NCBI GenBank assembly: GCA_003427395.1
Contig: BFEA01000042.1
Coordinates: 1,988,048 to 2,051,987, forward strand
Length of the DNA: 63,940 bases
Reading direction: 5' to 3'
From: Chara braunii
Taxonomy: Eukaryota; Plantae; Charophyceae
How positions within the stretch are numbered: the stretch's first letter is position 1; each line of letters starts with the position of its first letter. Under the pieces are notes generated by a model that made no database searches, had not been told where the DNA came from, and worked only from the letters and a program-made list of their open reading frames with translations. The translations under genes were made by a program, and so were the position numbers. Positions 18,243 to 63,665 of this stretch are shown piece by piece.

Positions 18243-18278
<36 letters not shown>

Positions 18279-21890: not shown

Positions 21891-22164
21891 CTTATGTAAG
21901 CAGGGTAAACGGTTTAAATCATGAAAAACTATGAGCTATTGGCTGTTCAGATGAATTGGGATGGTGAAAGTACTTACCTTTGTGGTTTGGCTTGCATGTG
22001 CCTGAGTGAGATCACTACCTAATATGAGTTTCAGTTTCATAGGTAGTTGCTTTAGATGCTCGCCACGTTCTGGAGCGATAAGAGTTAGTTTCAATTCCTG
22101 CATTTTCTGTAGTATTTTTTCTTTACTTAGGTCAATTCCCGCATTTTCTGAAATCTTTTCTTAT

Positions 22165-22730: not shown

Positions 22731-24974
22731 GTGGAATTAGGTTATTTTCGACAGGTGGCGCTAGAGAGTGTTATATGGAGGTGTGCTATGGAGGTTTATC
22801 CCCCATATGCTGATGATTTTAACCTGGGCATTTGACCTATCTTGTGTTACAGGTCCTTTGGTTTGTCTGATTCAAGGTCAGGACTAGATTCAGCTTGATC
22901 CCTTGAGGATCATTATCTGTTATCACTGATAACAGGTTGGTTGCCGATTCGTCGGTTTACGACTCAATTCTAGCTTACCCTCCACACCCATCCTAAAAGG
23001 TTTTAGCCCTGGTGATTTTCTTTGTTTCGTTATGGTTTCACTCGGACTTTTATTGAATGACCATTTAACAAAGGTACTCAGTAATTTTATTAAGGTTGGT
23101 TGGACAGGAGGTTTGGGGCTTGCATGGCTAAAGTGAGGGGTATGAGTGTTGAAGATGGTTGGGGTTGACTCCGTGTAGTGCGTGGGCGGTTGATTGACTC
23201 GTTGGTGTGATTCGCAGGTATGTGCTATGAATCAGGTTTTGGATGAGGTTGTCTGGGATCACATGTATACGTATGGTTGTGATGGACCCCCCATGAGACT
23301 GTGAGAAGTGATCGTCACATACTTCCCCCTGTTATATATATGTATATATGGGTATACTTGGGATGAATATTTGCATTGGCTAAGGGGTCCCGTATTAAAA
23401 GTCTGCTCAGGGGTTAAGACTAAGAGGCGTAGGGAAGACCCTTCCCTTTCATTTGTTTTACTTCTTAAAGGATTTTCTTGATCGGACGTTAGTCCTGGGC
23501 CGGGATTCGAGGTCCTTGTTGAGGACATCCCAAGCCCTAGGCTTTGCAGAAAAGGGGTTTTCCCTCGCACAGAGCCTATTTGCCTTGCCTATCGAGACTC
23601 TCAGACCAAAGGCCGGAGGTCTCGCGGCGGCTGCCCGACTATTCCTTCAGCCGTGCAATGTCGGGAAGGATTAGATCCTCACGACACCTCGAGTCTGACA
23701 CTTGAGTATCATAAGCAGTACCCGGATCCACGAGTGACCGCTTGACTATGGGCACTACATAGTACGCCATCGTTGCGACTGCATGCGTACGCCTGCATTG
23801 CGGGTTGGTATGAGATAGGTCCTCAGCTGCGCGACTTAATACTAAAATCCCGCGCGCGACGTCCTACCGCCCTAGTGTGTAAAAAGTTATGGGACTACAA
23901 GGGGACTGACACATATGGGCGAATGTTTGAAATTGTTATAGGCCGCTAACGCCGCGCGAAAAAGGGAGGGTATCCCAGGGCTATGATTTTGTTTACTAAG
24001 CGGGGAGCCTTCGGCCTATTCCTTATCGTTTGCTCTTTGGAGTTTTCATAGTTGGACGTTATAGTCCGTGGCAGCCGTCAAAGTCAAACCCCTTGATGTT
24101 CGACTGCCACGACAGCTCAAAGCTGTCTACTCAACCCCTTTGCACAGGGTGCAGAAGAGGGAGTGGTCTTCAACCGTGCATGGCGGTTGTCTAGCGTCAA
24201 GAGATTAACCCTCAAGGCGCGTGTCAGCCGACACTTGAGTGTCGAATGCGACCCTCGCGATTAACGGGGACCGCGTGAGTTTGGGTACCACATGACCCGC
24301 CATCATTTTGACCACTTGCGTACGTTTTGCATAGCAAATCGATATGAGTCTGCCCTACGTCCGCCAGGATTTAAATTAAGTCTCGCACATGACACCTATC
24401 CGATTTCCATATCGGGAAGTTATGGGGCGGCTACCGAGGGGCTAGGAGCATTGTCGCGTTGTTTATATTGTGTTGCTTCGTATTTGTGTGTGTAGGTTTT
24501 ATTGTTGTGTTCGTAAAGTGGTATGCGCGTGGTGTGTGGGATGCGTCCTAGTCGACCGACGACGAGCCGCGCTTGGGACTTCAGCCCCCCATGATGCCGG
24601 TTCGCGTATGGGTCCGATAGAGGCGTATTCCTGCGCGTATCCCCTATGCTACAGCGAATGAGAAACGCCCTCGGCTGGTCCACCTCTGCGATTGCAACTG
24701 ATTAGCTTTCGTACTGTGGACTGGTATCTCGGCGGGGATACGCCCACCGAAGGAAGGTGACAGCTCCCGTAAGGTGTAGGTAAGCTGTGCCTCGCGTAGG
24801 CCCTATCCTGTCGTAGGGGCTCGCGAGAGGTATGGCTGGCGCACTCGGCCGGAGCGTCTTATGGAAGCTCCATGTATATTCGTGACGAAGGATTGTTAAC
24901 CAACTCCTGCGTGACGTGGCGGGGAGGGTCTCGCGCTGCCCTGGTGCGGTGCCGGACCGACGTGCACGACACCG

Positions 24975-37209: not shown

Positions 37210-37215
37210 GGGCTC

Positions 37216-38947: not shown

Positions 38948-38987
38948 CCCTGACACGTTTCGATGGCCACCGCCATCTCATCAGGGG
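38948..38987 (-). ncRNA. Minimal type I hammerhead ribozyme (PLE1 5' repeat; mutated copy at 33338-33379)
   Basis: The minus strand reads CCC-CUGAUGA-GAUGGC-GGUG-GCCAUC-GAAA-CGUG-UC-AGGG. The other copy has GAAA-CGCG-UC-GG but a broken CUGA box. Confidence 0.8.
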
Positions 38988-43311: not shown

Positions 43312-43525
43312 GAGCATGGCGCGTGCGCTGGCCTGCGGGCTGGCTAGTGGGCATGGCACGTGCGCTGGCTTGCGGGTTGGCTAGCGAGCATGACGTGTGC
43401 GCTTGCTTGCGGGCTGGCTAGGGGGCATGGCGCTTGCGCTGGCTTGCGAGCTGGCTAGCGAGCATGGCGCGTGCGCTGGCTTGCGGGCTGGCCAGCGGGC
43501 ATGGCGCGTGGGCTGGCTTGCGGTG
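43312..43525. repeat. ~37-bp minisatellite, about 6 copies
   Basis: Unit GCATGGCGCGTGCGCTGGCTTGCGGGCTGGCTAGCGA/GG. Confidence 0.9.
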
Positions 43526-44470
43526 TCGGCGTGAATACCCTTATAACGATATTCACCCTAGTTTTTGCAAGTGACAACAAATAAGTTTCATTCGAAATTT
43601 GAGTACACTGCACGAGTCGCTGTTGTGTTTTGTTCACGCTGTTTAGATGGTTGACTAGAAGCAAAGAGCCTGAGTGTGTGGACACGCAGTTTTGAGGTGC
43701 GCATGATGATTCTTATTTTGATATTATAGAGTCGACGTTTCCGTCGGTGAAAATTTGATTTTTGATTAAAACTATGAAGGTTGTTCTCCATCTTGAAGTG
43801 ACCAAGGTGCGTGTGCGCTCATACAGAAGACGACATCAGGCAGTAAGTTTGCTTTTGGGCGGTGATTAGAGCATGCGAGAGAGAATAAAACGTGAGCAGG
43901 GACCTCCACGCGGTGGACGCGGGAGGTTAATGGTCGTGGACTGAGTTGACAGGCCGAAGGAGTGATCTTGGAGTAGCGAATATGGGATTCTGCTAGTGCC
44001 AATGCCAGCCTTGGGCATAACACTATTGGTTACGATATTGGATTTTCGAGGTGGAGGCACGAGGATCGAGGGCGGCGACCGGTGGCGATGGAACATCAAA
44101 GCGGCCGAAGATGCCGTGGGGTTGAGGGCCTGGTGGGGCTGACCCCCTTGCTTTTTGTTGGGGCCCCATCCGTGGGCCCGGTCGACATAACTGAAAGGGG
44201 CACCGACAGTCTCCCTTCCCCAAACCACCGGTTCCCGATGCTTGTATTTTTATTTTTACTTTTATTTTTATTTTTCTTTAATTATTTTAGTCGCTGGTCC
44301 TGTTTCAAGGACGCAGCACCAGCATCAATACCGAGGTTGTTTGCACGGCACCAGCCAGCGTGGGCTGAAAGCGCCAGCAGTTGCAATTTCCGCGAAGTGG
44401 CCGTCACTACAGTCGAGGACCTTGACCACACTCCTATTTTGGCCGGCCCATTTGGGTTCCTGCATGTTCG

Positions 44471-45876
44471 GGATGCTAGCGAAATTCCTCTATCCTACCC
44501 GTCTTGAACCGAGGAGTTCGACGTGCATGCGAGTCGGTGGGTGACTAGCCCACGAGGGGGAGGAAGAAACCTGAGTGGCGGGACCCTCTGCGCATGCACC
44601 GTCCGTCGCCCACGATGTGCTGTGAAAGGTTTGAGTGTGAGCATGCCCGGTCGGGCCCCGCAGATGGTGAACTGTGCCTAGGCGCAGCAGGGCGGGGGAC
44701 CGGGGCAGCGGCCGCAGCAGCAACACTGACTGTGAGCAGCTGTGCGCACGAACCCCCTTCTCCACTTGGGTCTTCGGAGTTCTCATTTGTATATTTACTA
44801 CTACCACCAAGCTCTGCACTGGGACCTGCTCCACCTAGGCTCACGCAACAGGCGTCGCAGCAGGCCCAGAGGCGCCGAGGAGGGGCTCTCTGCAGCTGCA
44901 CCATCCGTTGCCCACAGTCTGTTGTGAAGGGTTTGAGTGTGAGCATGCCTGGTCGGGGCTCGAAAGTGGTGAACTATGCGTAGCCAGGGTAGGCCAGGGG
45001 TGCTGTGGAGGAGGCCCGCAGCCATACTGACATGCAAATTATTCGTCAGGCTTTGGTATAAGGGCGAAAGACTGATCTAACTGTCTCGTAGCTGGTTCCG
45101 CCGAAGCTCCCCTCAGAATAGCGGGGGCTGTTGGGCAGCGCAGTCACACAGCTATGAGAGCGAACTCACAATGAGGAGGCTCGCAGCTATACTGAGTTGC
45201 AAACGGCTCGTAGGACCGGGGCATAAAAGTTAAGACTGACCGAGCAGGCCGGGGAGGGGAAGCATGGAACAATGACTGTGGAATGACTGTCGCTTACCAC
45301 ACACACAAAACATGAATGACAAGTATGACAAGATGTATGACACTGGGTGTTGCGGACTAGTGGACTGCTTCATAATGCATCTTATGATGTTACCTCCCTC
45401 ACCCCTCCCCTGACTCACACATTCCACCACATCTACTTCACAGATGATTGATAGCTTACTCACGTACAACTTTAGCCAGTACACATAATACATGACTCGC
45501 TCATACAAAGACGCAATGCCCTGAAACACTGGTAAAGTCTCAGACCTTTGTACATCTTCCTTATAGGTAGAGAATGACAGACAATACATGACGATCAATT
45601 TCAATTAGGAGGACATTATTGCTGAGTTTAAGCGTAGTGGGCTAATTGAAAATACAAGGGGCTGCAAAATTGCACTGGGTCAACAGAGTAGGTGGGGCTC
45701 CAAGAGGGGATGGGTGACAACAGCAGCTCCAAGGGAGTTCGGAACCCGGGGGGTTACAGTAGAATGACCACTGTGCACGTGCATTAACGGACAATGACCA
45801 GAGATTGATACATGTGACATTGTACGGTTTCCAGCAGGTGATTCTCCCCACCAATAGATCGAGCCGTGTCATTTGG

Positions 45877-45907
<31 letters not shown>

Positions 45908-45963
45908 CTGACCAAGCAGCCTAGTAGGAGGTTCCCTCCGAACTATCCTGGAGGATAGCGCAG
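44471..45963 (+). pseudogene. Three staggered degenerate 25S rRNA fragments (44471-44690; 44898-45128; 45174-45247 + 45920-45963)
   Basis: ACCCGTCTTGAA, GAGTGTGAGCATGCC, GATGGTGAACT.TGCC and GGGCGAAAGACT..GTAGCTGGTTCC..CCGAAG..CCCTCAG.ATAGC match conserved LSU sequence 3' of expansion segment D2. Confidence 0.85.
45248..45905 (+). mobile_element. 5'-truncated poly(A) retroposon with 14-bp TSD
   Basis: GACTGACCGAGCAG (45234-45247) and GACTGACCAAGCAG (45906-45919) flank it, with a poly(A) tail at 45877-45905. Confidence 0.85.
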
Positions 45964-47074
45964 CTGTTGAGGCCGAAGGCGGATCTGGACGCGAAGCTGT
46001 GCCTGGTGCAAGCAAAGCAGGGAGGAAAGCAGCTACGGGTGAATGTGGCTATAGCGGAGGTTGAAGATGTATGCCCCCCTCGTTCCTCAGTGAAAATGAG
46101 CTGGAGAAGATGGTAGGCAAGGGTTTTTAGGGCGGGCGAATCTGAATTTGTGTTCAGTTTTAGTAAGGATAGTAGAGTAGGAGTTAGTAAAAAAACGGAG
46201 TGCGTGACGATGGTGGGAGCGCAACTATGGCAGAAGGCGGAATTTCATTATTTCACTCGATTCTTTATAGAATCGAACGACCTAAGATCCGATTCCGGCG
46301 TTTTCGGGCCTCGTGAATCCATCTATGAACTCAGATTGATGAGGTGGGGGGCGAAAATTGCACCAGGAGCAGTAGGAGTTGCGCCCCCACTACGGAAATG
46401 GGAACTTCGGTATTTGGCCATGATCTGGTGAAAAATTCATTTCGATGGAAGTAACGTTGGAGCAGCCGCGAAGATTGGAGACTTGCTCATCCTGACGATG
46501 GAAGTAGCCACCCACTAGCGCTCTGCATGGCTGGAAAATAACGTATCTTTCCATGATCTAAAGAAAGATCCATTCTTATTGCGGATATTTGGAGCGAAAT
46601 CGGCGGGGTGGGTGAGCAGTTCCGTTTGGCCGGGCGCAACTCGTTTACAGAGTCGCCATTGTCATCAAAGGACTTGTGCTACACTTATCTTAACCTTCAT
46701 GGCGATGCTCGCGTGTAGAGAGAGACAGAGAGGGGATAATTGGTAGAAAGAGCCCACGCCAAAACCTTTTCGGTTTTGGCCGCCCAAAGTTCGGCCGTTT
46801 GGTACTACCGGCCCAATCAACTTTTCCATGGGTGAAAGGCGTTCGCGCCGTGTGATTAGTACATCCAATCGTGCAACCTCAGCATAAACAGTAACAACAG
46901 TCATCAATCCACATCACATCGTCCAAGGACAGGAGACCAGAGAGAAATGAAGACAAAAGCAAAGGGAGCGAAGAAGAGGGAGGAAGAGGAGGAAGAGACA
47001 AGAAGAAACACTAGGATGAAAAAAGTTCTCCGGAACGCCACATTGAAAAATTTGAATGAACTACAGACGGCAAT

Positions 47075-47120
47075 GACCCGACTATTTTCGGCCGGCCGCC
47101 ACCGGCGCTCGTCAGGGGTC
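47075..47120 (-). ncRNA. Type I hammerhead ribozyme (PLE2 3' repeat)
   Basis: GACCC-CUGACGA-GCGCCGG..CCGGCC-GAAA-AUAG-UC-GGGUC. Confidence 0.8.
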
Positions 47121-47652
47121 TTCGTCGGTCGTGAGGTGTCTAGCCTATGCAGACGTCACTAATTTATATCCTGTGCTCTGAATAGAAGTCGTAGATTCCA
47201 TCAAGGGACAGTAGAAACGTCTACACAAAGGGCGCAAACTAAAGCCAGAAATCGAACCTCTGACCTGCCACAAAAGAAAAATACCCCGGGACTAGTACCC
47301 GGTACTGGCAACAAAATGTACCCCGGGACTGAAACCCGCAGGTTATAACCGTCGAACAAAAAAACAGGTCCTGGGACCGAAACCCGCGAATCCTCCACCG
47401 CCAGTATACTCCACAAGTCAACTTACTTCGTATGGTCCCATCGAATGAACCCAAAATATATAGGACCCCGGGACTAAAAACCCGCGGGCTGTCCAACAGA
47501 TCTCAAGGGTTCCAAAACCAATTGTCTCATCACGTTCACAATACGTACTATTACTTATCATAGACCTCACGGCAAGCCATTGATAGATGATATACCACTA
47601 CACATTCAGTTACACTGAGAGAAACAGAATACCACGCGTATCAACTTAAACG

Positions 47653-50500
47653 TCACCAATTTGTAAGAATTGGAATCCAATGTTCCCAGCACTGAGCAAA
47701 CTTCCGGGAGAAGTGAATCAGAGACTTATCAAAGTAAAAATCAGGATAACCACGTAACCAAAGTTCATGTTTCAGCATGAAAAAAAAGGGCAACTCGAGA
47801 CCAGGAACAGATGTATACGTTCTGGCCCAATGCAAGAAGGAACAAATGACTGCAAATTTATGTTGTTTACTCGTGAAAGAAGAGAAATCTTGAATGCTTT
47901 GAAAGATTAACGGACGATTGATCTCACCACCCTGGTTCTTGTGCCTTGCCATACACACCACTTTACATGGATCATTTACGATCATCAATCTGCAACCAAT
48001 AAAATCCCAGTCCTATGACACATTCGTCTGCTCTAAAACAAGAGCATCATCATAACATGAACGAAACTCTTCCAAGATCCGGTCAACCATCGTCCGAGAA
48101 GGATGATATGACATATGAAATTTGACAAAGAAAGAAAGGTCATCCACAATTCTGCAACCATGCACCTACAACCGTTGCTTCTTCAACGACGATGGGAAGG
48201 TGTATTCGTTAAAGGCGCAGAGTAGACAAGCCAATGCAGGGCTCGTCGTGCTCCCCATAGGGATGTCCACAGTCTGCCGAAACAGTTTCCCAGAAACCAA
48301 GATGAAGGTGTTGTCCAAATTGTACCGGAAGAACTCAAAAATCTGCGAAAAACGTATCCGAGCCCAACCAGATTCGCCCTTCCCCTTCGTCAGCCTGGCA
48401 ATTCTACCATGCATACGAACCAATACTGCAGAAAAACCTTCGCTAATCCAATATTCCAAAATCCATCTGACGGCAGCCAAGACGGAGCGATGAGGTAGGT
48501 TGGAGAACATCTCTTTGATGTCAAAGGCTCCACCAATCACAAATTCATCTTCCCTCAACATTGAATTAACAGCCTCAATCTTTCCCATAATGTCAGCAGT
48601 ATACTTCATGTTAAAATGCATGCTATCCGGCAATCTCCATAACAGGTGATTAACTGCTCTCGCAACACGTCTACCACCCAAAACGGAACCATCCGAATGT
48701 GACGGGCAAATCGGACGCCATCGAGTTACGTCCTTATGTTTCGCCAAACAATAAGCATTGCCGAATGTGCCATGTTTGTTCCATCTACCAAACTTAGAAA
48801 ACTTCCTTGCTTCATACTGCGCCTTACATACGGCCAACACATCCTTCGCCGAATCAGTAATTGGAACGAAGGAATCATTCCCCGAAAAGAGCTTCCTCAT
48901 ACCATCTCCATACACCACAGGACAACAAATGAAGGTGTCACCAATATTGTGGTCAAGCGGGCAACACACTAGATTACGCAACCGACGCAACTGTTGTTTG
49001 ACTGCACATTTAGAAAAAACGGAATAATCATACACAGCCAATTCATCAGACTTCTTACTGAGAAGACACGAGGTAAAGTGATCATCGTCAGACGGCTCAA
49101 GACGTAACGACGGAAGATAGTGAAAATAATTGAAGGACCCAAGAATTTGTCGTTTGAGCTGAGACACCGGATGCTAATCTTCAGGTCGCAACACATTTTT
49201 AGAATTCTGCATACACCGATGAAAGAAATCAACGGAACTAATTCAAAAAGAAACATGTCCTTCGACACGTGGGAACAATGCATCAGCATCATGGCATTGA
49301 CATGTGTAATCGCCATTCCTAGCTACCTTCCGAAAATTATGCACCAAGTCACCTACCGACTGATTTTTGCATCACACCACCCGCATACGTCTGACCAACA
49401 TATCCATCCATACCGGTTTGACATCCAGTCTTCTAATCAAATGAGCAGTCAACTTCCTAACAACCATCTTACAAAAACGGTCATCATATACTACACGAAC
49501 CACCAACCTCTAACGCACATGCACACCAAACCGCTTGTAGATCACTGTGGAAAGTATGGTACATAATCTGTTGCGGGTGCGTTTCTCTTGAAAGCAATGA
49601 ACAACAGAAAAAAACGAAAACCAGCTCACGAAAATCCCACGAAGTCAACTGTCGTCGTGACGTAGGGTGACTAAGCAACTGAACCAGACAAGGTTTGATC
49701 ATCAGAGATTTATTGCAGAAAGGAACAATCGACTCAAACAGAATAACCGCTTCATCGACCAACCATCCTTTCGAGCTTCTAAACTGGTCTCTATCACCAT
49801 TGTACACAACAATTGAGGACCCATAACACCTTCCAAGGATTTTCCACTTATCTATTAACAATGGTCCACCACAACAGACGACTACCATCCGATCAATCGA
49901 GTTGTCCCGACAATGATTAAGTATTCGAAGAAGACTTGAGAAAGTAACTCCACAGGACGCATGGAAAGTCAACACGCAACTTTGAACAGCACTGGTCAAA
50001 GACAACCCAGATTTCTTCTTCCTCCGCAACCTCTCCCTCTTCCCCAAACGTCTCCGCTTACCTTTCTTAGGTCTATCCTTAGAGTTCAGTGCCGCCGAGA
50101 AGTGACGAATATAGAAACGCTCGGTGTCAGCTAAGTACTCATCCGTACAACCACAGATAGAAATGGCAACGTGTTTTCCCACATCACATCGTCGAAGCCA
50201 ACAATAAAGACGTTCGTTTCTTCTGCCCTTACTGCTCAACGTATCGCTGCATGTCCTGTACACGTGCTCAACCCATCGTGTACCCAAATCTCGAGTAGTA
50301 CTACCTACATATAGATGCCGATACCAGGGAGAAACCAATACATAAACGAGAGGACCTTTAATAACTTCCCCATCAATCCACGACCTCAGAATACAAGATG
50401 AGAGTTTAGATGCCCAAGAAATCAACCCACACAAGATTAAGACGATAACCACCACCCGGAAGAGAGCATCGACCTTCTTGCATCGCAGATTAGAGGTAGA
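47653..50500 (-). pseudogene. PLE2 ORF2: GIY-YIG, RT and thumb
   Basis: LVYVL..LYVGST..RWVEH..TE..YI...LN; WRPICP; FDIKEMF; IPMGSTTSP; RIVDD; DFIG; LRGYP. Confidence 0.9.
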
Positions 50501-50565
50501 AGAATAGCGAAAAAGAACACAAGCATTCGCAATCGACCACAGGCGTGCCGCGCTCGGGAGGGACC

Positions 50566-52030
50566 CTAAGAGTCAGCGAAGTCCCTCCCATCATCCTTAC
50601 CGGCATCTTCGATGTCCTCCGAAATCTCATGTACGGCAGCTCTCTTTTCGAAGGTACGTTCCACTCTTTTCTCGATAATGTCGTTGATTGTCTTGGGTAT
50701 AGTGCTATATTTAATCCCTTCCTTCATACATATTCCCACCAAATCGTCTTTCTTCTTGACAATGTTACCCAATTCCTTCCGTGCTTCTCGAATAAAGATA
50801 TCCCGTTCATTGTCTGGATCCTGTTATTCACGCGCACCGCCTTTCTGCTTCCTACGTGCAGTCTTCATCGTCGATCCTCCTGCTTCATCCAAGCGTTGTT
50901 GGAAAACTGACTTCGGCGGCTCCCGTTCACCATCACGTTTGGCTAGGTCTTCTTTCAATCGAGCATTCTCCTGTTCGGCCTCCCGTCACCAATTCAACTC
51001 CTGCAAACGCAGTTCCTTGAGAGTGTTGACCTCCAGCATGTGCAACTGTGCAAGCTGAGTTGGGTCGACGGTAGGTCTCTCTACACTTGACTTCCGCGGC
51101 GTAGTTGAAGGCATCTTGAGCTGTGATGGTGGGGATGTTGCCAGCCGGCTACGCTTATTGCCAGATCGAAGCGCCTCCCTCTTCCAACTTTCTGCTTCCT
51201 GCATCGCAAGCTCATGCTGTTGTTTAATCATTCTCAAGGATTCCTCCACCGTTTCAACATGTTTGTTGGCCACCGCCGCAGCTTCAAGTTTCATCTTCAT
51301 CTCCTCATGTTCCTGCATCATCTTAGCAAGCAACGCGTCATCCGGAGGTCTACTCGTCGAGGCACTGTCATTCTTAGCTGTTGCGCTTTGCGCCAGCTGT
51401 AACTTCTCAATCTCTTTCAAAAGCTTCTGCATTGTTGGCTCACCATTACCGTTGCTACTCTTCTGAGCTCGAAAACTTTCATACATCGCGTCTAATCTGA
51501 CATTCATCGCATCATGGAGTTCCTTATTGAGAGTTTCCCTTTCCCTTTTCTCAACCAACCGTCGCTCTTCTTCTTCTTTCGCCTTTCTCAATTTCTCTTC
51601 TTCTTCTCTTCATGCTACTTTTTTTGCCACCGCCGCGTCATACCATGCTCTCATCTTCCCAACGCTATCTTCGAGAGTGACGACGCGCTGATTCTGATTG
51701 GCACACCTGGTTCCTTTGGCGTATTGAACTTGATTCCACGACGCGCTGATTCTGATTGGCCCACCCGGTTCCTTTGGCGTATTGACCTTGATTCCCAGAT
51801 ACGGCTCCTACATTCGTCTGAGGAGGAGGTGGAGGAGGAAGAGGAGGAGGAGGAGGAGCGGTAGTCGAAGGATTCGGAAGGGTAAGAATAGGAGCAGCAA
51901 CAGTGTTCGGTACCGCGGTTTTATGAGGCCACCATCGAGCGAAATGATTAGGATCTCCGCAGTTGTAGCACGTGCGTATGCTAGAAGTAGTAGCCATTGT
52001 GGATGCTGCCGACAAAATTACCGAAGCCAC
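50566..52030 (-). pseudogene. PLE2 ORF1: zinc knuckle, poly-Pro, coiled coil, SAP/HeH-like end
   Basis: CYNCGDPNHFARW(C); a coil at 50986-51591; KKDDLVGICMKEGIKY. Confidence 0.75.
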
Positions 52031-52298
52031 TTGTAACGCAGTCTAACCTCTACGACGGTTACTCCGTGTATGGAAGTGATTAGTACATCCAATCGTGCAA
52101 CCTCAGCATAAACAGTAACAATAGTTATCAATACACATCACATCGTCCAAGGACTGGAGACCAGACAAAAATGAAGACAAAAGGAGAGGGAGCGAAGAAG
52201 AGGGAGTAAGAGGAGGAAAAGACAAGAAGAAACACCAGGATGAAAAAAGTTCTCCCGAATGCAGCATCGAAAAATTTGAATGAAGTACAGACGGCAAT

Positions 52299-52344
52299 GA
52301 CCCGACTAGTTTCGGTCGGCCGCCACCGGCGCTCGTCAGGGGTC
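52299..52344 (-). ncRNA. Type I hammerhead ribozyme (PLE2 5' repeat)
   Basis: GACCC-CUGACGA-stem II-GAAA-CUAG-UC-GGGUC, with a palindromic CUAG helix III. Confidence 0.85.
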
Positions 52345-52945
52345 TTCGTCATTCGTGAGGTGTCTAGCCTATGCAGACGTCACTAATTTATATCATGTGC
52401 TCTAAATAGAAGTCGTAGAATCCATCAAGGGACTGTAGAAATGTCTACACAAAGGGCGCGAACTAAAGCCAGAAATCGAACCTCTGACCTGCCACAAAAG
52501 AAAAAATTAATACCCCGGGACGAGGACCCGGTACTGGCAACAAAATGTACCTCGGGACTGAAACCCGCGGGTTATAACCGTCGAACAAAAAAACAGGGCC
52601 CGAGACTGAAACCCGCGAATCCTCCACCGCCAGTGTACTCCACAAGTCAACTTACTTCGTATGGTCCCGTCAAATAAACCGGTAGGGCCCTTCTTTTTCA
52701 AAATCGCGTACGTGGGCCTCATTCCATACTTCAGCTTCACCACTGCCGGCCTCTTTTACATCAAAATGAATATGGCGCTATAACCGCTGTTATGCGCCAG
52801 ATTCATGATCCGGTAGCGCCATTGGAGCGACGCGTGGGCCTGTAGTACCCCACTTGCAAGTCATTGGGCCGGTAGTACCAAACGACTAAATATTGGGCGG
52901 CCAAAACCGAAAAGGTTTTGGCGTGGGCACCTTCTACCGATTATC

Positions 52946-52981
<36 letters not shown>

Positions 52982-53106
52982 NNNNNNNNNNNNNNNNNNN
53001 NNNNNNNNNNNNNNNNNNNNNNNNNNNNNNNNNNNNNNNNNNNNNNNNNNNNNNNNNNNNNNNNNNNNNNNNNNNNNNNNNNNNNNNNNNNNNNNNNNNN
53101 NNNNNN

Positions 53107-53176
<70 letters not shown>

Positions 53177-56100
53177 CGAACCTACCTGGGAAGCTGGTGA
53201 TGCGGCATGAACCAAAAGCCAAGCTACATGTTGAACTGCAGGGCCCGCTAGCGGGCCAATTTGGACGGGCAATCATGCGGGGTAGGAATGAAAGTAAAAT
53301 AAAAAGAAAGCATAATAAGTATCGATGTATCTCTCCGTATTCTTGCGGAAGATTCATTGTGGTTTTTGCTAATTTTCTTTTAGAAATAACATCTCAATCT
53401 CTCTGTGTGCATGGCTGAAAACTGGTGTGGATTGCCTTATTCAGGCGGAAGTTTCATCTCGACTTTGCTCACCCTGACAAAGGAAGCAACCACTCGCTCT
53501 CTCTCGCGCACAGGAGTGGTGTAGCAGTCGTGATCACCATACTGACCGGTCGTCACCATCAAGGCCGCCTCCGCCGTTTGATCGTGGTAACAATCGGGGC
53601 CATCACTATGACCTTCACTCCCCATACTGCTTTTTGCTATGTTCGCCACTATGATCACGTGCGCAATCCCCGTTTGAGTGCAGCTGCTCGTCGTGCCCGC
53701 CGCCCGGTGGTCGTCACCACTAGTTGGATCTGACAGTAAGTGTGACCAGGTACATTAATATGAAGGAGAGGGGAGGACGAGCCTGGCGCAAAGTGGTTAT
53801 GCTGAGGCGGGGACAAGCAAGAATTGGGCGATGTACCTCCTCATATTTTGAGAGAAGGTTTGTTCTCATTCTTGCACGTGTGATGAGTAGTGGGGTGCGG
53901 CCATTGTCGTGCATGCCATTGACGTGATCGTGTTGATCGAAATGTTGCCCATTTAGTTGTGCTCACCATCATTATTATCAGATCAGGTTGTTTATCTTCG
54001 TCGTCATCATTATCGACAGGCTCCATGGTTGTCATCATGGCCAACATTAGCCGGATCAAAGCTGCCCGCTATCGTATCTGCAAGTGTGAAGTGAAGATGG
54101 GAGTTGTGCTAAGTGCTACTACACAAAGGGCTTACAATAGGTGGATGTATCTTCCCATGTTCTAGTGGGCGATTTATCTATTATACGCATTTGGGAAGTA
54201 GGGGAACGAGACTGCTTTTGCCATGATACGGAGGGGATTGCAGTTTGGTGCATCAGGCAAGATACGGTGTATTTCTTCCTGTTCAATTGTTGTGGGTCCC
54301 CACAACGGAACTTAATGTTGTGTCATGCAGCTTGCTGCTATTGGGATTGCAGTGCAGCCTAGCCTGTGCTTTTGTAAACTCGGTTAGTGTTTTTGTGACC
54401 CAACCTGTGTACCTTGAGTAGTTGCCTGTCTTCGCACGTGCCATTGCAGCTTCTGACGGGAGTGAGAATGCGTGCCTAGTCATGGCGGTCGTCTGATTGG
54501 TCGAGATCTGAATGTGCTTTGGTAGCTGCTGCAGCTACCTTGAAGACCGCATATTGCTGATTCTTAAGTTAGATAAATGATTTCACTACCACGGATTGTT
54601 GCGCATTGCTGTACACACAGTACCTTGCGCCTTTGTTGCGTTCGTGATATGCATCGATGATCCTGCTAGGCTGCTGCTATACGCTGCTCCGTTTGTTGTG
54701 TATCGGGGATATGCGTTGTTGTGTCTTAACTTGTCCATTGCTACGCCTTTGTTGTGTGGCGCTGCTGTTTATTACATTTTGACATTGGTTACTACCTCAG
54801 TGACTTTCAGCTACGCACGGTTGCTGTGCGCACAGAGTTATGCTAAGTTTTTGTTGGGACTTGCTCTCGTCTCGAGCGAGAGCGAAGGGCTGTGCACTAT
54901 TCAAACGCACTCGTTTTAGGCTGTGTAACGACTTTCGGATCAGAGGGAACGGTATCACAGCTTGAGAGAGTGATTCAGCACTGCAAAGACTAACTGCAGC
55001 CATTTAGTTCCTCAGGCTTGCGGCTGAGCATGACTGCTGTGCTTCGTTGTGTTTTATTGCATTACACCACGTCTCGCATTGCACTTTGTTGTTGGGCACC
55101 GTCGCTGCATGAACTGTTATAGTCTGGTGTGCTCTATTTGAACGTCAGTGTTCTAGGCTGCGTGGCGGCAGTTTAGGCTGGGGGGAGGCACTATATTGGT
55201 GAGGGGGTGATCAGGCTCTACAAGAGGGTGACTGTTGCGACTTCAAGGATCCTCAGAGGCATTTTGCTCGTCGTGACGGCTTATAGTTTGACCATCTTAC
55301 TATCCGTTTTGGCCGCCATAGTGGGGCCCTAAGGAGTTGAAGATTTCAAGGTCCTCCCTCTTACGCGAGTTTGAGAGCACCCTCCTTGTTTCTGAGAGAC
55401 TCAAAGACCTCTGCTTCCGCCCTTCTTACTCTAAGCCTAATATGAGGTTACGAGAGAAAGGCGGCAGGCGGGACTGCAACCCGTAGGAACGCATCAAGAC
55501 TCTTTGGGGAGTTAGCCCACCGATTGCGAGAGCTCAGCCGGAGCTCGGGCGGGGTTCTGGAGGCAGGGAACACTCAGGTATAATGTTTTTTTTACGTGTG
55601 TGATCCCATCCCTTAAACTACACTATCCTTTGCTACTATGTGCCTGCAGGTATGACTGAGAAAGCTAGCTGTTTTTGTTTGTTTTGAATTCAAGATATGA
55701 TCTGAAAGCTAAAATTCGTAAGTATATATGAAAAACTCAGATTATTTGTATGAATTCAGAAATAATGAATGAGGGAAGGTGGGATGAAGGTACTCTGCTT
55801 GTGTTTGACTGGGTCAACCCAAGGCCGAATCCCTCTAAGTTGAGTGGGTTCAATGCTATGTTTTATTTGTGTTTGTTGGGCTACAATGGTTTGGACAACA
55901 TTGATTGACGACGGACCCAAATTATGAGGAGGTGGCTACAAAGGCGAGGCAACTTAGTCTATTGCATACTTTGTGTCTCTTTCTGGTATTCCTCAATATT
56001 CAGTATGTGGAGCCTCGACTGTCGGTGGTCATTATAATTGTATGTCTATTCACATAACAAATGGTGCGGGAGGGAGGAACTACAGTGTACATCAGGTGTT

Positions 56101-56492
56101 CTCTGGCGCCGGGCCCAGGGTGAAGAGGCTCAGGGGGTTTTTGGCGTCGGCCCAGGGTGAAGCGGTTGCTGACAGACGATGTAAGTATGAATTCAGTATG
56201 GCTTTGGGGAGGGAGAAACTAGTATCTAGCTGTGTACCTGGCACCGGATTCAGGGTGAAGAGGTTCCTCATTTCCTCCACTATCCTGCTAAGTCAATCCC
56301 CTGGTTCCCAGGATAATAAATGCTGGTAGAAACGCTCCATAATCGTCTCTGATGTATCTCCAATTCAGTTTGTATAAGGGACGCTGGACCCGATTCCCAG
56401 CAGGTGATGCTCCCCACCAATGGACGGAGCCTCTCCCAAGGTGTTAGTGGTGTCTGCTCTTATCAGCACCACTAACATTGGTTGGGGTGTAT

Positions 56493-56523
<31 letters not shown>

Positions 56524-56589
56524 GAGGATTGGGCCTATCATAGGTTCGACGGTCCAACCACTTCTTTTTTTTTGGGGTTTCTGAACAGG

Positions 56590-57322
56590 AGGATGAGCGC
56601 CCTAAGCTGGGAAGACTCAGATTCCTAATGTTTATTTTGGGTTGCTGAAAACAAGACTGGGGATATTCTAAGTTGCGTAGTGTCAGTTCTGTGTGTGTTT
56701 TCTTCTGAGGGGGACAACGGCATGAGACTGGCGTACCCCTAAGTTGGGGCAACCTAGCCATAAGCCATGAACTTAAGAGGTAATCCAAAGTATAAAAGTT
56801 GATATACATGTTATATATGCATCTGGCAGGCTGACACCCTAAGTTGGGAGGTTTAGCCAATAAGTCATGTATGGCAAAAACAGAAGGAAAGCAAATGAAG
56901 AATATAATGTGAAGGTAACCTGGGCAGGATGAACGCACCCGTAAGTTGGGGCGGTTCAGTCCTATGCCCATGATCACATAAAAAGGGCTGAAAGTTAGTG
57001 TAAAACTTTTTATTTTCCCTTTTAAACAAAAGGCAGGGTTAGATGTCTCCCTAAGTTGGGTAGGTCTGACTCTCTGCCTAAAAATAAAGTAAGTTGTAAC
57101 GTTTGTAATGAGTATTTATGATTGACAATAATTGAACTGTTGTAATGTAGACTAACTACGTAACCGTTTTAACGCTATGAACGAACGTTCGCGTTCAAAT
57201 CCACGTTTGAACGCGGATTTAAATTCACGTTCAAAATTGAACGCCGTTTTTTTTTTTTTTTTTTTAAAGAGTCTCTCTCTCTCGCGCGCTATGGCTCTCT
57301 CACTCTCTCTCTCTCTCTCTCC

Positions 57323-57372
<50 letters not shown>

Positions 57373-58126
57373 AGCTATGGATCTCTCTCTCTGAGACTTT
57401 CTCTCTCGCTTGCTTTGGTTCTCTCTCTCTCTCTCTCTCTTGTCTCTCTCTCTCTCTCTCTCTCGCTCTCTCTCTCTTCCCCTCTTTCTCCATCAGTGCG
57501 CGTTTGAACGTTGTAGGCCGCCATTTTTTATATTTTTTTTTACGAACCGTGGAATTGATTGACGTGTTCAGTCGCGTTCATTGAACGCGTCGTTATGCGC
57601 GTTCATCCCGTTCAAATATTGAACAGAAAACCCACGTTCAATGAACGTGCGGTTACATAGGAGACTAAGTGTACCCCTAAGTTGGGGCGACTTAGTCATA
57701 CGTCGTATGTAACTTGTTTTAGGCAGATCAAGCGTACCTTAAAGTTAGGGCGGTCTGATCACATTGCCTTATTTATCTTAAACTTTCTAGAATAACTAGG
57801 TGTACCCCTAAGTTGGGGTGGTCTAGCGATATGCCCTTTGTTGTTGATGTTATGCAGGTTGGACGTACCCTTAAGTTGGGGCGGTCTAACCATTCATCGT
57901 TTGTGTTTGTTTAGGCAGGTTAGGCATACCTCTAAGTTCGGGCAATCTAATCCTATGTCATTGGTAAACTTTGTTTAAGGTTGACCAGGCATACCCCTAA
58001 GTTGGGGCAGTTTGGACATAAGTTAGGCATACGTCTAAGTTGGGACAGTCTAGTTGTGCGTATTCTATTTGTTTTGCCTAGGCAGGTCAGGCGTACCCCG
58101 AAGTTGGGGTGGTCTGATCCTATGTC
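56590..58126 (+). repeat. Array of ~14 covarying hairpins with a CCCC-TAAGTT-GGGG apex
   Basis: Copies at ~56590, 56655, 56726, 56829, 56921, 57031, 57663, 57721, 57797, 57857, 57913, 57983, 58021 and 58081. Confidence 0.9.
57156..57660. mobile_element. hAT-like MITE (TIR CTACGTAACCG/CGGTTACATAG; 8-bp TSD tAGACTAA/gAGACTAA)
   Basis: The TIR and TSD are visible, with TGAACG/CGTTCA subterminal motifs and an internal (CT)n tract. Confidence 0.85.
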
Positions 58127-58387
58127 ATAGGAAAAAGGGTTTAATAAGGGTTAAAATAACTAAGAGATTAACGAACTACTTGGCCAAAGCAAACGTGGTA
58201 TTGAGAGAGATGTTGTTTTGGTTTAATTATGAGCGCTCGTTTGGGGAGTCTTTTGATAACTTAGTCGCTTTAGATGCTCGTCGTGTGCTGGAGTTGTAGG
58301 AGTTAGATTAATTCCTGCATTTTTTCGGTTAAATTTATTTTTAGTTCAATTTCAACATTTCAGGAATAAGTTTATCTTATATTTCTG

Positions 58388-58700
58388 GCTTTGTATAAAT
58401 TTTAGGAAGACACTTTTTCTACGGGAAACGCTGCCCAAATTTCTGCAAATCCTGGGAGTTAGTTAAATTTTGTCTTTTACAAATTCAGCTTTTTGTCTGT
58501 ATTCATATATGACTTAGTATAAATCCGGGAAACCTATCTCTCTAAAGGAGATGCTGCCCAAATTTTACTAATTCAGGGAGTTAGACAAAAAAATGGCTTT
58601 GTAAAAACCAGAGTTGATTTTTTTCTTGTATTTAGCTTTGTATAAATTATGAGAATGCACTTGTCCTACGGGAAGCGCTGCCGAAATTTTTTAGAAGAGT
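58388..58700 (+). repeat. Three ~123-bp GCTGCC(G/C)AAATTT hairpin units
   Basis: Homologous to 22165-22730. Confidence 0.8.
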
Positions 58701-59361
58701 TAAGATATTTCAGAACTTGAGAATTTGACAGTCTGCCCTTGTTTAGGGTATACACTACTGAAATTCCTGTTATTTTTAGATAAACATAAGAGACCTTGGA
58801 TTATTTCATGATCATTCAAACATGGTTTGGGCACTGGTCTATGCTGCATAGCAGACCACCTTTGTTCAGATTGATTCAAGGCTTGACTAGCTTCTGACTG
58901 ATCCTACGATGATCGTCTTCTATTATTTTTTGATAACAGGTGGGTTTCCTGATCAACTCTAATTCATTCCCGCTACGCAACCTCAAAGTCTTAGCCCCTG
59001 TGGATTGAAATGTTTCTTTGGGGTTTTTACCTGGACTTTTTTAAATGGTCTGTGTTTTGTTTTGGGAAGGTTGGACAAAGGTTGGGGTCTTCTGTGGGTA
59101 AGGCACAAGGGTGTGAGTGCTGAGAATTGTTAAAGTTGACCCCTTGTAGTGTGTGTTTTGTTGATCTGAAACCGCTGATGTGATTGCAATTGTGGTTCAA
59201 ACTATGACTTTGACTTTCTTGCGATTATATATATATATTTTTTAGGGAAGTCACACTTTGATTGTGAGAAGTGATTGTCTCGTTTCTTCTGACCCTATAT
59301 ATATATATATATACATATATATACATATATATATACATATATATATATACATATATATATA

Positions 59362-60621
59362 CAGGGTTACCTGACCGAACTTTTGGGGGCCCCCGGGCTG
59401 ACCCCCGAACGTTCAGGCGTTCGGGGTCCTCAACAGAAGAATTCCCATGAGAAGTGAGAGTTGAAAAAACATTCCATAAAAAAAACATTCATCATATTTA
59501 TAAATTATCATTTCAATGTTTGTCCAATTCTAAAATTTTCAATTAAATTTGATATGTTCTCGTCTAATATGAGCTTTCTCTTCCAACTACATCTATTTGT
59601 TCAAGATGGAATGAAAGTCTGGACGAGTTTATAAAATGTTTTAATTAGACTTTCATTCTACAACAACAAATATCGTCTAATTTAGATTGGATTAACCTAT
59701 TTATGACTAAAAATCCTTACCTAGAATGAAAGTCTAATTAGAATATTTCATGATTTCATCCAGACTTTCATTCCATCTCTAGCATGCAGTTCAAATCAGA
59801 AGGGATACCACATTCTTGGAAGGAAAGTTTTCAAGTAAGACGAAAAATTTTAAAATTGGAATGAGATTTTTTAAGATGGAATGAAAATTTGAAATTTAAA
59901 ATGTAATTTTACTCTAGAATGATTATTTAATTTTGGGAAATTTTTCTGTTGCCGTTGGCGGGCCGAACACCTCCAGGTTCAGCCCCCGCCAAAAAACAAC
60001 TTGGCGCCTAAAAATAAGTTTTTCTTTCTGAATGTTTTTTTGTGAGTTGTCTATGATGTAGCCTACACGCCTATACATTTTGAAGCCATTCTGCTTAGCC
60101 AAAAAAAACATTAAAAATCGTCAAAGATGGGTGTGTCAAAACGTGCTTGCCCGCTCACTATTTTGTTTTTTTTCAGTTTTCACTTTTTTTTTTTTTACTC
60201 CATATTTCGGGGCCTAAAATTTTTTAATGAGTTGTTGATTATGTAAACTAAATATCTGTAAATTTTCAGGGCATTTATCAATGCCAAAAAATAATTAAAA
60301 ACCGGCAAAGATGGCGATGTCGAAAAGGTGCTGGCACACTCACTCATTTTAATTCTCTTTTTATTTTTTCTTATTTTTATCAGTGTTTATTTTCTGTATT
60401 TGATTTTTAATTCAAATTTGGTAAAGAATTTGAATGTAGTAACCTGGCAAATGTTGTTATGTTTATGTTTCGCCATAACTTTTTTTTTTTGGGATTGTTT
60501 GAAAACGTTTTTTTTTTTTTTTTTTTTTTTTTTNTCCNCNTTCGGCCCGAATGGCCGAACNCCTTCCGAAGGGGTTCCGTATGTTCAGGCGTTCGGCCCG
60601 TCCCGAACGTCGACAACCCTA
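59362..60621. mobile_element. hAT-like non-autonomous element in a (TA)n tract
   Basis: CAGGGTT..AACCCTA termini, CCGAAC/GTTCGG subterminal repeats and an AT-rich interior. Confidence 0.7.
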
Positions 60622-60665
60622 TATATATATACACACACATATATATATATATACATATGTATATA

Positions 60666-61368
60666 TATATCGTCACAAATAGAACTGTCTGGTAAACCGT
60701 AGGCAGAGAGAGAGAAGAGGACAACAAACGAGGGGCTGTGACAAACTGTTTCGTCGGAGTTTCACCGACTCATCAGGAGGCTGAACCCTCAACAGTCTAC
60801 AGAATCCCCTCACTGATTATACTGTAAATGATAATTTACCTTAACCAAAATCAAAGTAGACTATCACTCACCCACACCTTATGGAAAACTCTACAGACTG
60901 GCGGTTCATACCCCATCACAAGCCACCAAAACATCCACGAAACAGAGAAAGGTCTGTCACAGCCAAAAAATACACTGCAGACATGCCGCTGGCACTAGAG
61001 GCACAACATGGCCGCCTAGTAACGGTCCCGACCACTGCCGCTCGACATGAACGGAAAAAACCGTAGCAGGAAGCTAGCGAAGTCGTAGCATATATCGTCA
61101 CAAATAGAACTGCCCGGTAAACCGTAGGCAGAGAGAGAAGAGGACAACAAACGAGGGGTTGTGGCAAACTGTTTCGTCGGAGTTTCACCAACTCAACAGG
61201 AGGCTGAACCCTCAAGTGTCTGCAGAATCCCCTCATTGATTACACTGTAAATGATAATCTACCTTAACCAAAATCAACGTAGACTATCACTCACCCATAC
61301 CAGATGGAAAACTTTATAGACTGTCGGTTCACACCCCATCACAAGCCAGCAAAACATCTACGAAACAA

Positions 61369-61376
<8 letters not shown>
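60666..61376 (-). mobile_element. Retrozyme-like element: ~287-bp direct repeats (60666-60953; 61091-61376) around a 137-bp spacer
   Basis: Direct repeats, each carrying a hammerhead motif, flanked by (TA)n. Confidence 0.75.
60744..60797 (-). ncRNA. Type III hammerhead ribozyme (degenerate copy at 61167-61220)
   Basis: GACUG-UU-GAGG-guucag-CCUC-CUGAUGA-GUCGG-ugaaacu-CCGAC-GAA-ACAGUU. All three helices pair. Confidence 0.88.
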
Positions 61377-61410
<34 letters not shown>

Positions 61411-63665
61411 TTTTCGAGTGTTCGCGCGGTTTATTGCGACCGTGGGTAAGGATCGAGCGCATTTGCATTAAGAGAAAACGAAGATCCTCTTTTGTCTTTT
61501 ACTCTTTAAAGAATTATTATGTTTGGACGTTGTAGTCCGTGGCAGCCGTCAAAGTCAAACCCCTTGATTTATCTTCAAGCCCTAGACGATGGAGCTTGTC
61601 TCTAAGGCCATCGGAGTTGACTGTCACCACTGGCTGAAACCTGTGTACCACCCACTCTCCGCAGGGTGCAGAAGAGGGTGTGGTGATCAACCACCCTGAC
61701 AATTGTCTAGCGTCGAGAGATTAACCCCTCAAGGCGCGTGCCAGCCGACACTTGAGTGTCGAAAGTGACCCTCGAGGTTATCGAGATTCGCGTGATTACT
61801 GGTACTACGTCGTTGCGACTGTGTGCGTATGCTTGCATGGCTAGTCGATATGAGAAAGGTCTAGCGTCTGTGTGATTTTATCTTAAGTCTCACGTGCGAC
61901 GTCTAGCCGATTTTCATGTTATAAGGTTATACGTTGAATACTGAAGAGACTAGGAGAGTTTTTGTATGTGTGTATTTTAATTCTTAGCGTGGTGTAACGC
62001 GTGGTAAGTGGAATGTGTCCTAGTGGACCGACGGCGAGTCGTGCTTGAGACCTCAACCCCCCAATGCGTCGATTTGCATGCGGGTTCGATTTTGGGGCAT
62101 TAACCGCACATACCCCCTATGCTACAGCGAACAAGAAATGCCATCGGTCGGGCCACCTTAATAACTGCATACGAAAAACCTTTGCATGTTGTTCGGTAGC
62201 TCAGCAGAGATACGCCCACCCAAAGGATGGTGACAGCTCCCGCGGGTGGACCTAAGTTGTACCTCGCGTAACCCTATCCTATCGTAGGGGTTCGCGAGAG
62301 GTATGATTGGCGCACTCGGCCAGAGCGGCAAAACACTCTACGACGAAGTCCTGCAAAATCCAGCGTGACACGTCCGGGAGGGTCCCCCTACGGGACCGAT
62401 GCGCTCGGCATCGGGCTGGCTAGCAAGCGTGATGCGTGCGATGGTTTGTGTTGGTTTGCGGTCACATGATTAGGAATAACTTGAAGGTGGGATGTTTTCT
62501 TTATTATTCGAACAATGTTGATGGGGTGACTAGACGGCGAGAAAACCGATATGTAAGTGTTACTTGGTGTTCCCCTGTCTTTTGAAAGCACATTGTTGTC
62601 ATCTTCTTGCTTCGCGCTTCATCGAGTTATGCTGCAGGCTAGCATGCCCTATGGAGGGGAACCTATTTTCGATTGAAAGTAAGGCTTCATGACCAGTCAC
62701 TCATGCTCTTTAGCTCGCATTTTTTTCAAGTGGAGGTAGGTCGGCTAAGGCAAGTAAAGAAGAGGAGCGTATCATCACGAGGAGTGGGAGGAGGATTGGC
62801 AGGAGACTATCACTGCGGTTTTTTAAGAAAGGTCTTACGCCATCTTCATCATCAGCAGCAACATCATCTGTAAGGATTATTATAGGTTCATTATGTTTAT
62901 CATCAGCAACACAAATAATATCGTCATCATCAACAACATTGTGCGATAAATACTTACCAAGGTCATTATCTTCATCATCATAGTGCGGGAACATGGATTA
63001 TTATCATTGTTATCGTCATCATATCATCATCATCATCATATCATCATCATCATCACCATCGTCATCATCATCATTATTCAGGTGCATGGGCATAGGAGGA
63101 GGCCTCTTCATCACGTCTTCCCACTTCATTTCCCCCTTCACATTTCTCTATCAATTCTCTTTTTGTCCTCATGCCTCTCTCTCCTCCTTAAATTTACACC
63201 TTTTTTTTTTCCCCCCTTTCTCGCTTCCTTACTTCGACATGGACACTTTCCCTTGCTCTACTCTAGCCTGGTAGCTACTTCGTTTGTTGGAGTCTCTCAC
63301 TCTAATTCCGAAAGGAAGTTGGGTGAGGGTGATTACAATGGATGGGGTGGTTGGGGTAATGGCGGGAGAAGGGGTAAAACATCACGAGGGAAATGGGGGA
63401 GGGGAGAGGAAGGGGAGGAGCTATGAATTCCCCACGGCCCGCGGTCGCCTCGGGTACGACCGCGGGCCGCGGTCATGACCGTGGCGACCGCGGGCAAAAA
63501 CGGGCCACCACGGCCGCAGGGGGAGGGGTGTGGGGAAGAGGGATGCGGATTGAGGTTCCAGAACCCCGCCCGCACCCCCTTGAACAGAAAAAAAGTCAAA
63601 TTTTTTTTTTTCGGGGGGGTGATTTTTGGTGTGTGAAAGAAAAAATAGAAAAAAATAGAAAAAAA

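Follow-up and report, generated by a model that had tools for sequence, protein, structure and literature searches.

Tandem stem-loops with a near-invariant UAAGUU loop in two families of probable giant solo LTRs of Chara braunii

A stretch of 63,940 nucleotides of the Chara braunii genome (contig BFEA01000042.1, here called the window) carries two tandem arrays of small hairpins, located at matching positions in two non-coding elements that align colinearly. The locus raises the question of what maintains these hairpins, and in particular whether they act as folded RNA read from the + strand. Little is established about the cis-acting RNA signals by which Ty3/Gypsy elements of plants and algae are exported and packaged. 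With 12-15 units, a fixed loop and stems that can be exchanged, the array lends itself unusually well to pull-down and mutagenesis; its family has a very high copy number, and the genome is that of a lineage near the origin of land plants.

Element B (43524..62410, + strand), which hosts the array under study, is a non-coding mobile element bounded by TG...CA and containing nested insertions. It is colinear along its length with element A (16304..24971, + strand; 8,668 bp), its homologue from a second family, and the two are 60-75% alike. Element A ends in TGTCGG...CACGACA and element B in TGTCGG...CTCGGCA. Element A has the target duplication CCGT on both sides, and element B has GCGG on the left (43520..43523, +), within a 37-bp tandem repeat, and TCGG on the right (62411..62414, +), where that repeat resumes. 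A 4-bp duplication of the form NCGN is thus present in both elements (CCGT/CCGT and GCGG/TCGG), once with one mismatch. The host element is very abundant in Chara braunii. The depth of aligned DNA falls from 29,653 to 34 past 62418, at the end of element B. A third copy interrupts a different Chara gene, the break falling precisely at the element A terminus. An empty-site paralogue of the element A insertion was also seen near 25209.

Neither element holds an internal LTR pair or an end-to-end direct repeat. Given the TG...CA ends, the 4-bp NCGN duplications and the lack of an internal LTR pair, both are, as far as sequence can tell, probably solo LTRs of ~6-7 kb, and the terminal repeat carrying the array is probably among the longest retrotransposon LTRs known in plants. 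Such a length would exceed the reported upper range of ~5 kb, and also the 6 kb ceiling set for LTR-FINDER in PMC6317226, so that families of this kind would be missed. Neither PBS nor PPT nor gag-pol could be located, and no Gag or accessory ORF was linked to either element copy; the 24 loose-end rows listed, out of 1,426, likewise held no PBS or PPT. A search for a Penelope-like ORF found nothing. Protein searches from the end frames, tried as a guide to LTR orientation, yielded a further insertion site plus two spurious matches. Coding potential was rejected for the blocks shared by A and B, which frameshifting indels interrupt, and a 223-aa frame on the - strand over array B was rejected as a gene, having no Pfam match and no counterpart in A.

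Several non-coding features frame the array. Upstream, a conserved block (55307..55577, +) is 75% identical to 20405-20678 of element A, and conservation drops at a donor-like CAG/GTA (55578; 20676 in A). Donor-like sites conserved in the alignment of A and B number two on the + strand and none on the - strand, in a scan with a rough matrix from general knowledge. Downstream lies a putative acceptor, so called by its sequence, TGATAACAG/GT (58931..58941, +), which is common to A (22927-22937). Between them, a second array of ~123-bp repeats (58260..58700, +) has three copies, and five in A; some of these can form stem-loops, a few with C(UACG)G, and a consensus fold is absent on either strand. 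The most conserved block is terminal (61494..62410, +), with aligned depth of up to 403,000 and 568,000 per bin in two data sets; should the LTR read on the + strand, it is a candidate R-U5.

Array B comprises 15 hairpin units, which bears out the ~14 units plus an outlier at ~55827-55850 counted in the initial annotation. The outlier (55820..55860, +; loop 55836-55841) is at the same position as the first unit of array A (20957). A left cluster (56580..57080, +) has six units, with loops starting at 56603, 56669, 56740, 56840, 56942 and 57052, and a right cluster (57657..58128, +) has eight, at 57678, 57741, 57809, 57872, 57933, 57998, 58036 and 58100, spaced by 61-68 bp with one interval of 38. 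Unit 56669 was picked by eye and fails the automatic unit filter. Two later insertions interrupt the array: one with a poly(A) tail at 56493-56518 (about 55900 to 56518, +, the left edge being approximate), and one with 7-bp inverted ends and a (TC)n tract (57160..57656, no strand assigned). Aligned depth is 38-92 within the latter (57480-57601) versus 6,502 in the adjoining array (57663-57723). As a side observation, positions 56367-56431 of the poly(A)-tailed insertion are 76% like 45802-45865, which likewise precede a poly(A). Unit count and spacers differ among aligned contigs, where they appear as joints that go back.

Each unit follows one plan, with a lower stem of ~8 bp, a small asymmetric internal loop, a 4-bp C/G stem and a UAAGUU loop on the + strand that is near-invariant (TAAGTT exactly in 12/15 units). 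The loop-closing pair is C-G in 11 of the 15 units, versus A-U in 10 of the 12 units of array A (20940..21890, +; units spanning 20957-21865), as had been proposed. It is mixed within array B: unit 57741 closes with T-A, and so does unit 57872 in most aligned contigs too (57878 G>A, among the 40 of 226 differences listed). All the inner stems quoted in the initial annotation are present, namely GACTAAGT/ACTTAGTC at 57663/57690, TGAAC/GTTCA in unit 56942, GGTTGGAC/GTCTAACC with one G-U in unit 57872 and GGTCAGGC/GTCTGATC with two G-U in unit 58100; the outer stems AGGCA/TGCCT and GGGCA/TGCCC, also named there, are whole in only 3 of the 11 long units (57052, 57741 and 56942). The motif CCNTAAGTTKGG, with at most one mismatch, has 21 matches in the window, all on the + strand and all inside arrays A and B; chance expectation is 1.93 +/- 1.44, and 21 matches were reached in 0/100 shuffles.

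Pairs were counted in the units that share a common register, 11/15 in array B and 8/12 in array A. Across these 19 long units 87.3% of cells are paired, versus 77.3 +/- 1.5 in shuffles (0/500 reach it), and both sides have changed in 33 cells versus 15.8; in array B alone 84.6% are paired versus 80.6 (4/500 reach it). The shuffles ignore the kinship of the units, and their result is therefore not a probability. In the lower stem of array B the two-sided changes are all transitions, which deamination of paired cytosines can mimic. Identity among units is 0.94-0.96 in the loop, 0.52-0.65 in the lower stem and 0.27-0.33, the chance level, in the linkers. Pairing is kept although the stem letters vary and the linkers are at chance identity, and the fold is thus under selection: the hairpins, as related units that differ mostly by transitions, have a covarying conserved structure, as expected for a cis-acting RNA element, in agreement with the conserved fold proposed earlier. 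Among the 40 of 226 differences listed, 12 majority differences fall within units; two restore UAAGUU and two turn a stem A-C into G-C. In array B, no Rfam covariance model matched at its gathering score, and two weak matches were far below it.

The families differ at the apex. The change from A-U in A to C-G in B is a true double transversion, and the upper stem and internal loop are 100% identical among the eight long units of array A, so that this part of the proposed family-specific variants of a shared fold holds. Co-evolution with a family-specific protein, the cause then offered, is not supported: the loop (0.95 between A and B) and the lower stem (0.52 between A and B, 0.56 within B) are common to both families, which suits a common reader better. 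The family-specific closing pair may instead have arisen by drift, followed by homogenisation inside each array.

The claim that G-U pairs point to + strand RNA found weak support. An excess of G-U over A-C exists in the 11 long B units (21:7, p 0.013 against 1:1) and in the long units of A and B together (27:12, p 0.024), and one stem column has five A-U, nine G-U, five G-C and no A-C. Without the single best column the ratio drops to 18:12, the lower stems of array A give 5:4, and against the 0.63-0.68 expected from a G+T-rich strand the excess has p 0.13-0.48 (0.13-0.26 in B). In straight register, moreover, the internal loop of array B is A-C on the + strand in 9/11 units and would be G-U on the - strand. 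Consensus folding yields -13.5 kcal/mol for B and -13.9 for A and B on the + strand, and -2.9 and -0.3 on the - strand. In B the + strand gains -2.5 kcal/mol of free energy over the - strand, the same as in shuffles (-2.4), and strand asymmetry of minimum free energy was dropped as evidence, since 404/520 shuffles favour the + strand too. Per-unit folding z-scores prefer the + strand in only 9/15 B and 8/11 A units, and sliding windows over array A show no strand bias (21/42). RNA reads are few (9, 472 and 23 in three runs), run in both directions and come from libraries whose strandedness is not given; these rare reads contain no splice joint. Their direction was also set aside, two runs having mostly the first mate on the - strand and the third mostly on the + strand, as was a tetraloop census that leans to the + strand within the elements but lacked a composition control. 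The TATAG at 61523 fits either an acceptor on the + strand or a TATA box on the - strand, and so agrees with both orientations of the element.

Our preferred explanation, to which we give slightly better than even chances, is that the array is a tandem stem-loop amplification in a likely giant solo LTR of a CpG-targeting Ty3/Gypsy family and likely a multivalent protein-docking site on + strand RNA. The + strand of the LTR would then be transcribed, and the array would belong to an intron-like segment, bounded by the conserved donor at 55578 and the acceptor-like site at 58939, which the replicated RNA would have to keep. Since the loop is what the bound protein would recognise, both families would share that protein, either Gag or a host export factor, and it may license export or packaging of unspliced RNA. 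A bolder form of this explanation we consider doubtful: that the LTRs of the dominant Chara retrotransposon group surpass in length all those surveyed in plants and contain a natural MS2-like array. In its 12-15 covarying hairpins the fixed UAAGUU loop would attract a single conserved factor, which could be U1 snRNP if the loop mimics a donor that cannot be cleaved, with closing pair and bulge serving as a family address.

Among the alternatives, an unlikely one that still deserves weight is a double-stranded DNA motif array in U3, either an enhancer or the target of an element-encoded anti-silencing protein, as VANC is in VANDAL, with the palindromic core as the site and the G-T excess as mutational skew. 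The array does fall in U3, the usual enhancer region of an LTR, if the LTR reads on the + strand; upper stem and loop show sequence conservation, and the G-U excess fits composition. VANC targets are also tandem repeats that differ between related elements (PMC5735166). A DNA site, however, leaves unexplained that the lower stem stays paired as its sequence varies, that loop and internal loop are asymmetric and that both sides of the closing pair change together. We see only a slim chance that the units are uncleavable decoys whose loops recruit U1 snRNP, so that an LTR transcript of several kilobases is neither polyadenylated nor spliced prematurely. UAAGU, found in 24/27 units, equals donor positions +2 to +6 lacking the +1 G; a G precedes the loop in only 2/27 units, neither in a Watson-Crick closing pair, and the closing pair is A-U, C-G or U-A, never G-C. 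In foamy virus, U1 binding suppresses LTR polyadenylation under the control of RNA structure (PMC3694450). Yet the units match the 11-nt donor consensus at only 5-7 positions, and discontinuously; their choice by a UAAGU-type motif makes the count partly circular, and the missing G-C is based on about three independent states.

Similarly improbable is that the host element is no LTR at all but a non-autonomous Ginger1-like DNA transposon, in which the array would be a transcript relic or a transposase-binding array. Ginger1 terminal inverted repeats measure tens to hundreds of bp, whereas the terminal inverted match here is just 5 bp and no inverted match of at least 40 nt joins the ends; nor was a transposase remnant present in two stop-free frames scanned within the array regions. 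The lack of a visible LTR pair, PBS and PPT would fit, and Ginger1 does show 4-bp duplications and TG...CA ends (PMC6839031). It is very unlikely that the hairpins serve reverse transcription as single-stranded DNA, aiding strand transfer or protecting the long strong-stop DNA of a giant LTR: G-T wobble suits such DNA too, the LTR may have either orientation and 4/4 units tested fold as DNA on the + strand (z -1.1 to -3.6), but far more weakly than as RNA (-6 to -14 versus -18 to -26 kcal/mol), and a mere folding aid would not need an invariant loop. Least probable is that a small inverted repeat multiplied neutrally, through slippage or template switching, and that gene conversion has kept its copies similar. 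Unit number and spacers do vary among contigs, and non-coding regions of plant Gypsy elements often hold tandem arrays (PMC6317226); the comparison of loop with linker identity largely refutes it, the loop being invariant across families only 60-75% alike while neighbouring linkers are randomised.

The docking array in a giant LTR can be compared with several known systems. Phygy, a non-chromovirus Ty3/Gypsy clade of Physcomitrella, has target duplications that are 100% 4 bp and NCGN (PMC6317226, supplement file 3), a hallmark that elements A and B share together with TG...CA ends; an NCGN preference would extend CpG-targeted Gypsy integration from moss to charophytes. A whole Phygy averages 8,628 bp, nearly all coding, whereas one non-coding unit here is 8,668 bp. 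Phygy is also marked by its RT/RH/INT phylogeny and a tRNA-Trp PBS; neither copy here has a linked internal domain, and A and B are at most candidate members of the clade. Ogre/Tat/Retand elements have expanded non-coding regions with repeat arrays and LTRs of up to ~5 kb (PMC6317226), and rice Retrosat2 has a 3.2 kb LTR, a conserved U5 and many solo LTRs (PMC3485330). The excerpts of both sources describe sequence repeats, without covarying fixed-loop hairpins, whereas the Chara array is inside a putative LTR that is longer (an estimated ~6-7 kb). VANDAL DNA transposons carry family-specific motif arrays in non-coding DNA that arose through tandem repeat formation (PMC5735166); VANC binds DNA motifs that differ by family, in contrast to the common loop and conserved pairing in Chara.

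A paired-motif scan of viral contigs gave 0 loci. In metagenome contigs it gave 25, none homologous, these being simple tandem repeats or CRISPR-like arrays; only 3/25 had short matches of 66-70%, and the hairpin model scored at most 19.7 bits. HIV TAR and RRE, MPMV CTE, IAP RTE and Psi are stem-loops bound by proteins for export or packaging. They have no sequence likeness to the Chara hairpin, whose plan matches the hexaloop, 4-bp stem and 5' bulge of TAR, and where the retroviral RNAs carry one or a few such elements, Chara carries 12-15 units in tandem.

The initial annotation had described about 14 hairpin units plus an outlier in element B (43524-62410), and 15 loop-bearing units were confirmed on the + strand, from 55836 to 58100. 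The loop is exactly TAAGTT in 12 of them and in 11/12 units of array A (20957-21865), carried by the homologous non-coding element A (16304-24971). The proposed C-G loop-closing pair in B, against A-U in A, was likewise borne out (C-G in 11/15 B units; A-T in 10/12 A units). Every quoted stem was found, but just 3 of the 11 long units of B, those in common register, have both arms of the outer stem intact. The core motif has 21 matches in the window against 1.93 expected, all on the + strand and within arrays A and B. A search of the window with a model built from the 19 long units of both families found no third array, and Rfam gave no match to the hairpin array. Array B is interrupted by two later insertions, and its right cluster is a tandem array with a period of ~63 bp.

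The hairpin array is real and selected. Across the 19 long units of A and B, which are mutually related, 87.3% of cells are paired against 77.3% in shuffles, and two-sided changes number 33 against 15.8, values reached by 0/500 shuffles in either case; B alone is weaker (4/500 for pairing, 49/500 for two-sided cells). Lower-stem changes in B are transitions throughout, which paired deamination could mimic. Deamination cannot mimic the A-U to C-G closing change, nor a loop 95% identical between families beside linkers at 27-33%; the fold and loop are therefore under selection. Hairpins of the two families differ at the apex alone (a different closing pair, and an additional base in the internal loop of A), lower-stem identity is 0.52 between families and 0.56 within B, and array B itself holds a U-A closing subtype. 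A loop reader common to both families, combined with apex variants that drift and become homogenised, would account for the family pattern without the suggested co-evolution.

A scan for the paired hairpin motif returned metagenome and environmental contig loci. CRISPR-like repeats of metagenome contigs (L011, L012, L015-L017, L021) carry the same CCCC-TAAGTT-GGGG hairpin, otherwise unrelated to the Chara arrays and therefore convergent. Environmental contigs (L002, L009, L014, L019, L022, L025) hold intergenic tandem arrays in which a ~23-bp palindrome with a CCCTAAGTTTGGG core recurs in as many as 22 copies; these are possibly iteron-like.

The claim that G-U pairs point to + strand RNA held in part: G-U:A-C counts of 21:7 in B and 27:12 overall are significant against 1:1 but not against strand composition. 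Lower stems of array A give 5:4, its internal loops have G-U in 8/8, and the internal loop of array B has A-C in 9/11 (one register). Consensus folding succeeds on + (-13.5 and -13.9 kcal/mol) and fails on - (-2.9 and -0.3 kcal/mol). The preference of single-unit folding energies for + does not exceed that of shuffles. A and B share two conserved donor-like sites on + and none on -; at 62251-62252 the majority of compared contigs (those matched to the window) carry differences making the site resemble A's donor at 24780. The motif at 61523, either a + acceptor or a - TATA box, counts against this donor-site evidence. Three RNA runs yielded 9, 472 and 23 reads, in both directions, with no intron joint among them, and first mates over the terminal block lean + in run X6 and - in run X7. 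RNA of the + strand is thus only the favoured reading.

Blocks at 43512-62384 match 16292-24930 in colinear order, with 61-75% identity, and both elements start with TGTCGG and end with CA. Element A has CCGT on either flank and an empty-site paralogue near 25209, and a third copy disrupts another Chara gene precisely at A's right end. Element B lies inside a 37-bp tandem repeat with flanks GCGG/TCGG, and DNA read depth at its right end falls from 29,653 to 34. No LTR pair, long inverted ends or recognisable coding region was found inside A or B, nor was any PBS, PPT or gag-pol encountered. From the TG...CA ends, the 4-bp NCGN duplication and the lack of an LTR pair, long inverted ends and coding region we infer that both are solo LTRs, an estimated ~6-7 kb once insertions are removed; a Ginger1-like host element, which concerns the host and overlaps other readings, is improbable. 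Summed depth of hairpin bins in DNA run X1 is 998-21,108 against 10-16 for single contigs; this is not copy number, and X1 is possibly the assembly's own source reads, so it marks the region only as highly repeated. Copy B is old: most compared contigs are <95% alike to it and A>G or T>C makes up 36-51% of the difference sites listed.

The terminal block (61494-62410 in B, 24023-24971 in A) contains 45-60 bp segments near-invariant between families and has the highest DNA read depth; within A, part of the block is also present as an old duplication (23669-23814 vs 24203-24348). Element B's TA run received both a TIR element (59362-60620) and a 425-bp direct repeat (60665-61376) and is probably a hotspot for insertion. 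Element B further holds eukaryotic LSU rRNA fragments (44577-45095; Rfam match at 44959-45095) and a nested Penelope-like element (46733-52947, - strand) with a weak GIY-YIG match (49484-50572); this and a second such element (33222-39471, - strand) have direct repeats of 600-640 bp, 91-93% alike. Overall, the window is a nested set of transposable elements. The decayed element at 4300-15900, probably a large DNA transposon, comprises a multi-copy Chara-specific 588-aa ORF (52 matches, 51 of them named relatives, each a CBR_g protein of Chara braunii), an Ulp1 protease ORF (12609-13193) and many GCGAGTTAGTTCGCAC-type repeats. A perfect 40-bp palindrome (16204-16243) adjoining an N gap resembles a Nextera mate-pair junction adaptor and is a probable assembly artefact.

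As to function, we lean slightly towards the array's hairpins acting on + RNA as a multivalent docking site; the array would sit in an intron-like segment whose retention is required, and docking would serve export or packaging of the RNA. The loop sequence UAAGU equals positions +2 to +6 of the donor consensus. That the hairpins are U1 decoys, for which PMC3694450 offers precedent, is improbable. A motif array read as duplex DNA, by analogy with VANC (precedent in PMC5735166), would be unlikely rather than improbable, whereas a role as ssDNA is very improbable and a neutral origin the least probable of all.

We regard the array as a novel form of the structured repeats that occur in the non-coding DNA of retrotransposons, its binder and strand being proposals. 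Searches of literature with few subscription papers (and not the Retand and Ogre repeat papers that PMC6317226 cites) turned up no description of LTR structure in Chara or of a comparable hairpin array. According to PMC6317226 and its supplement file 3, the Phygy clade of Gypsy elements is characterised by 4-bp NCGN duplications, and elements A and B resemble Phygy in carrying 4-bp target duplications of the NCGN kind.
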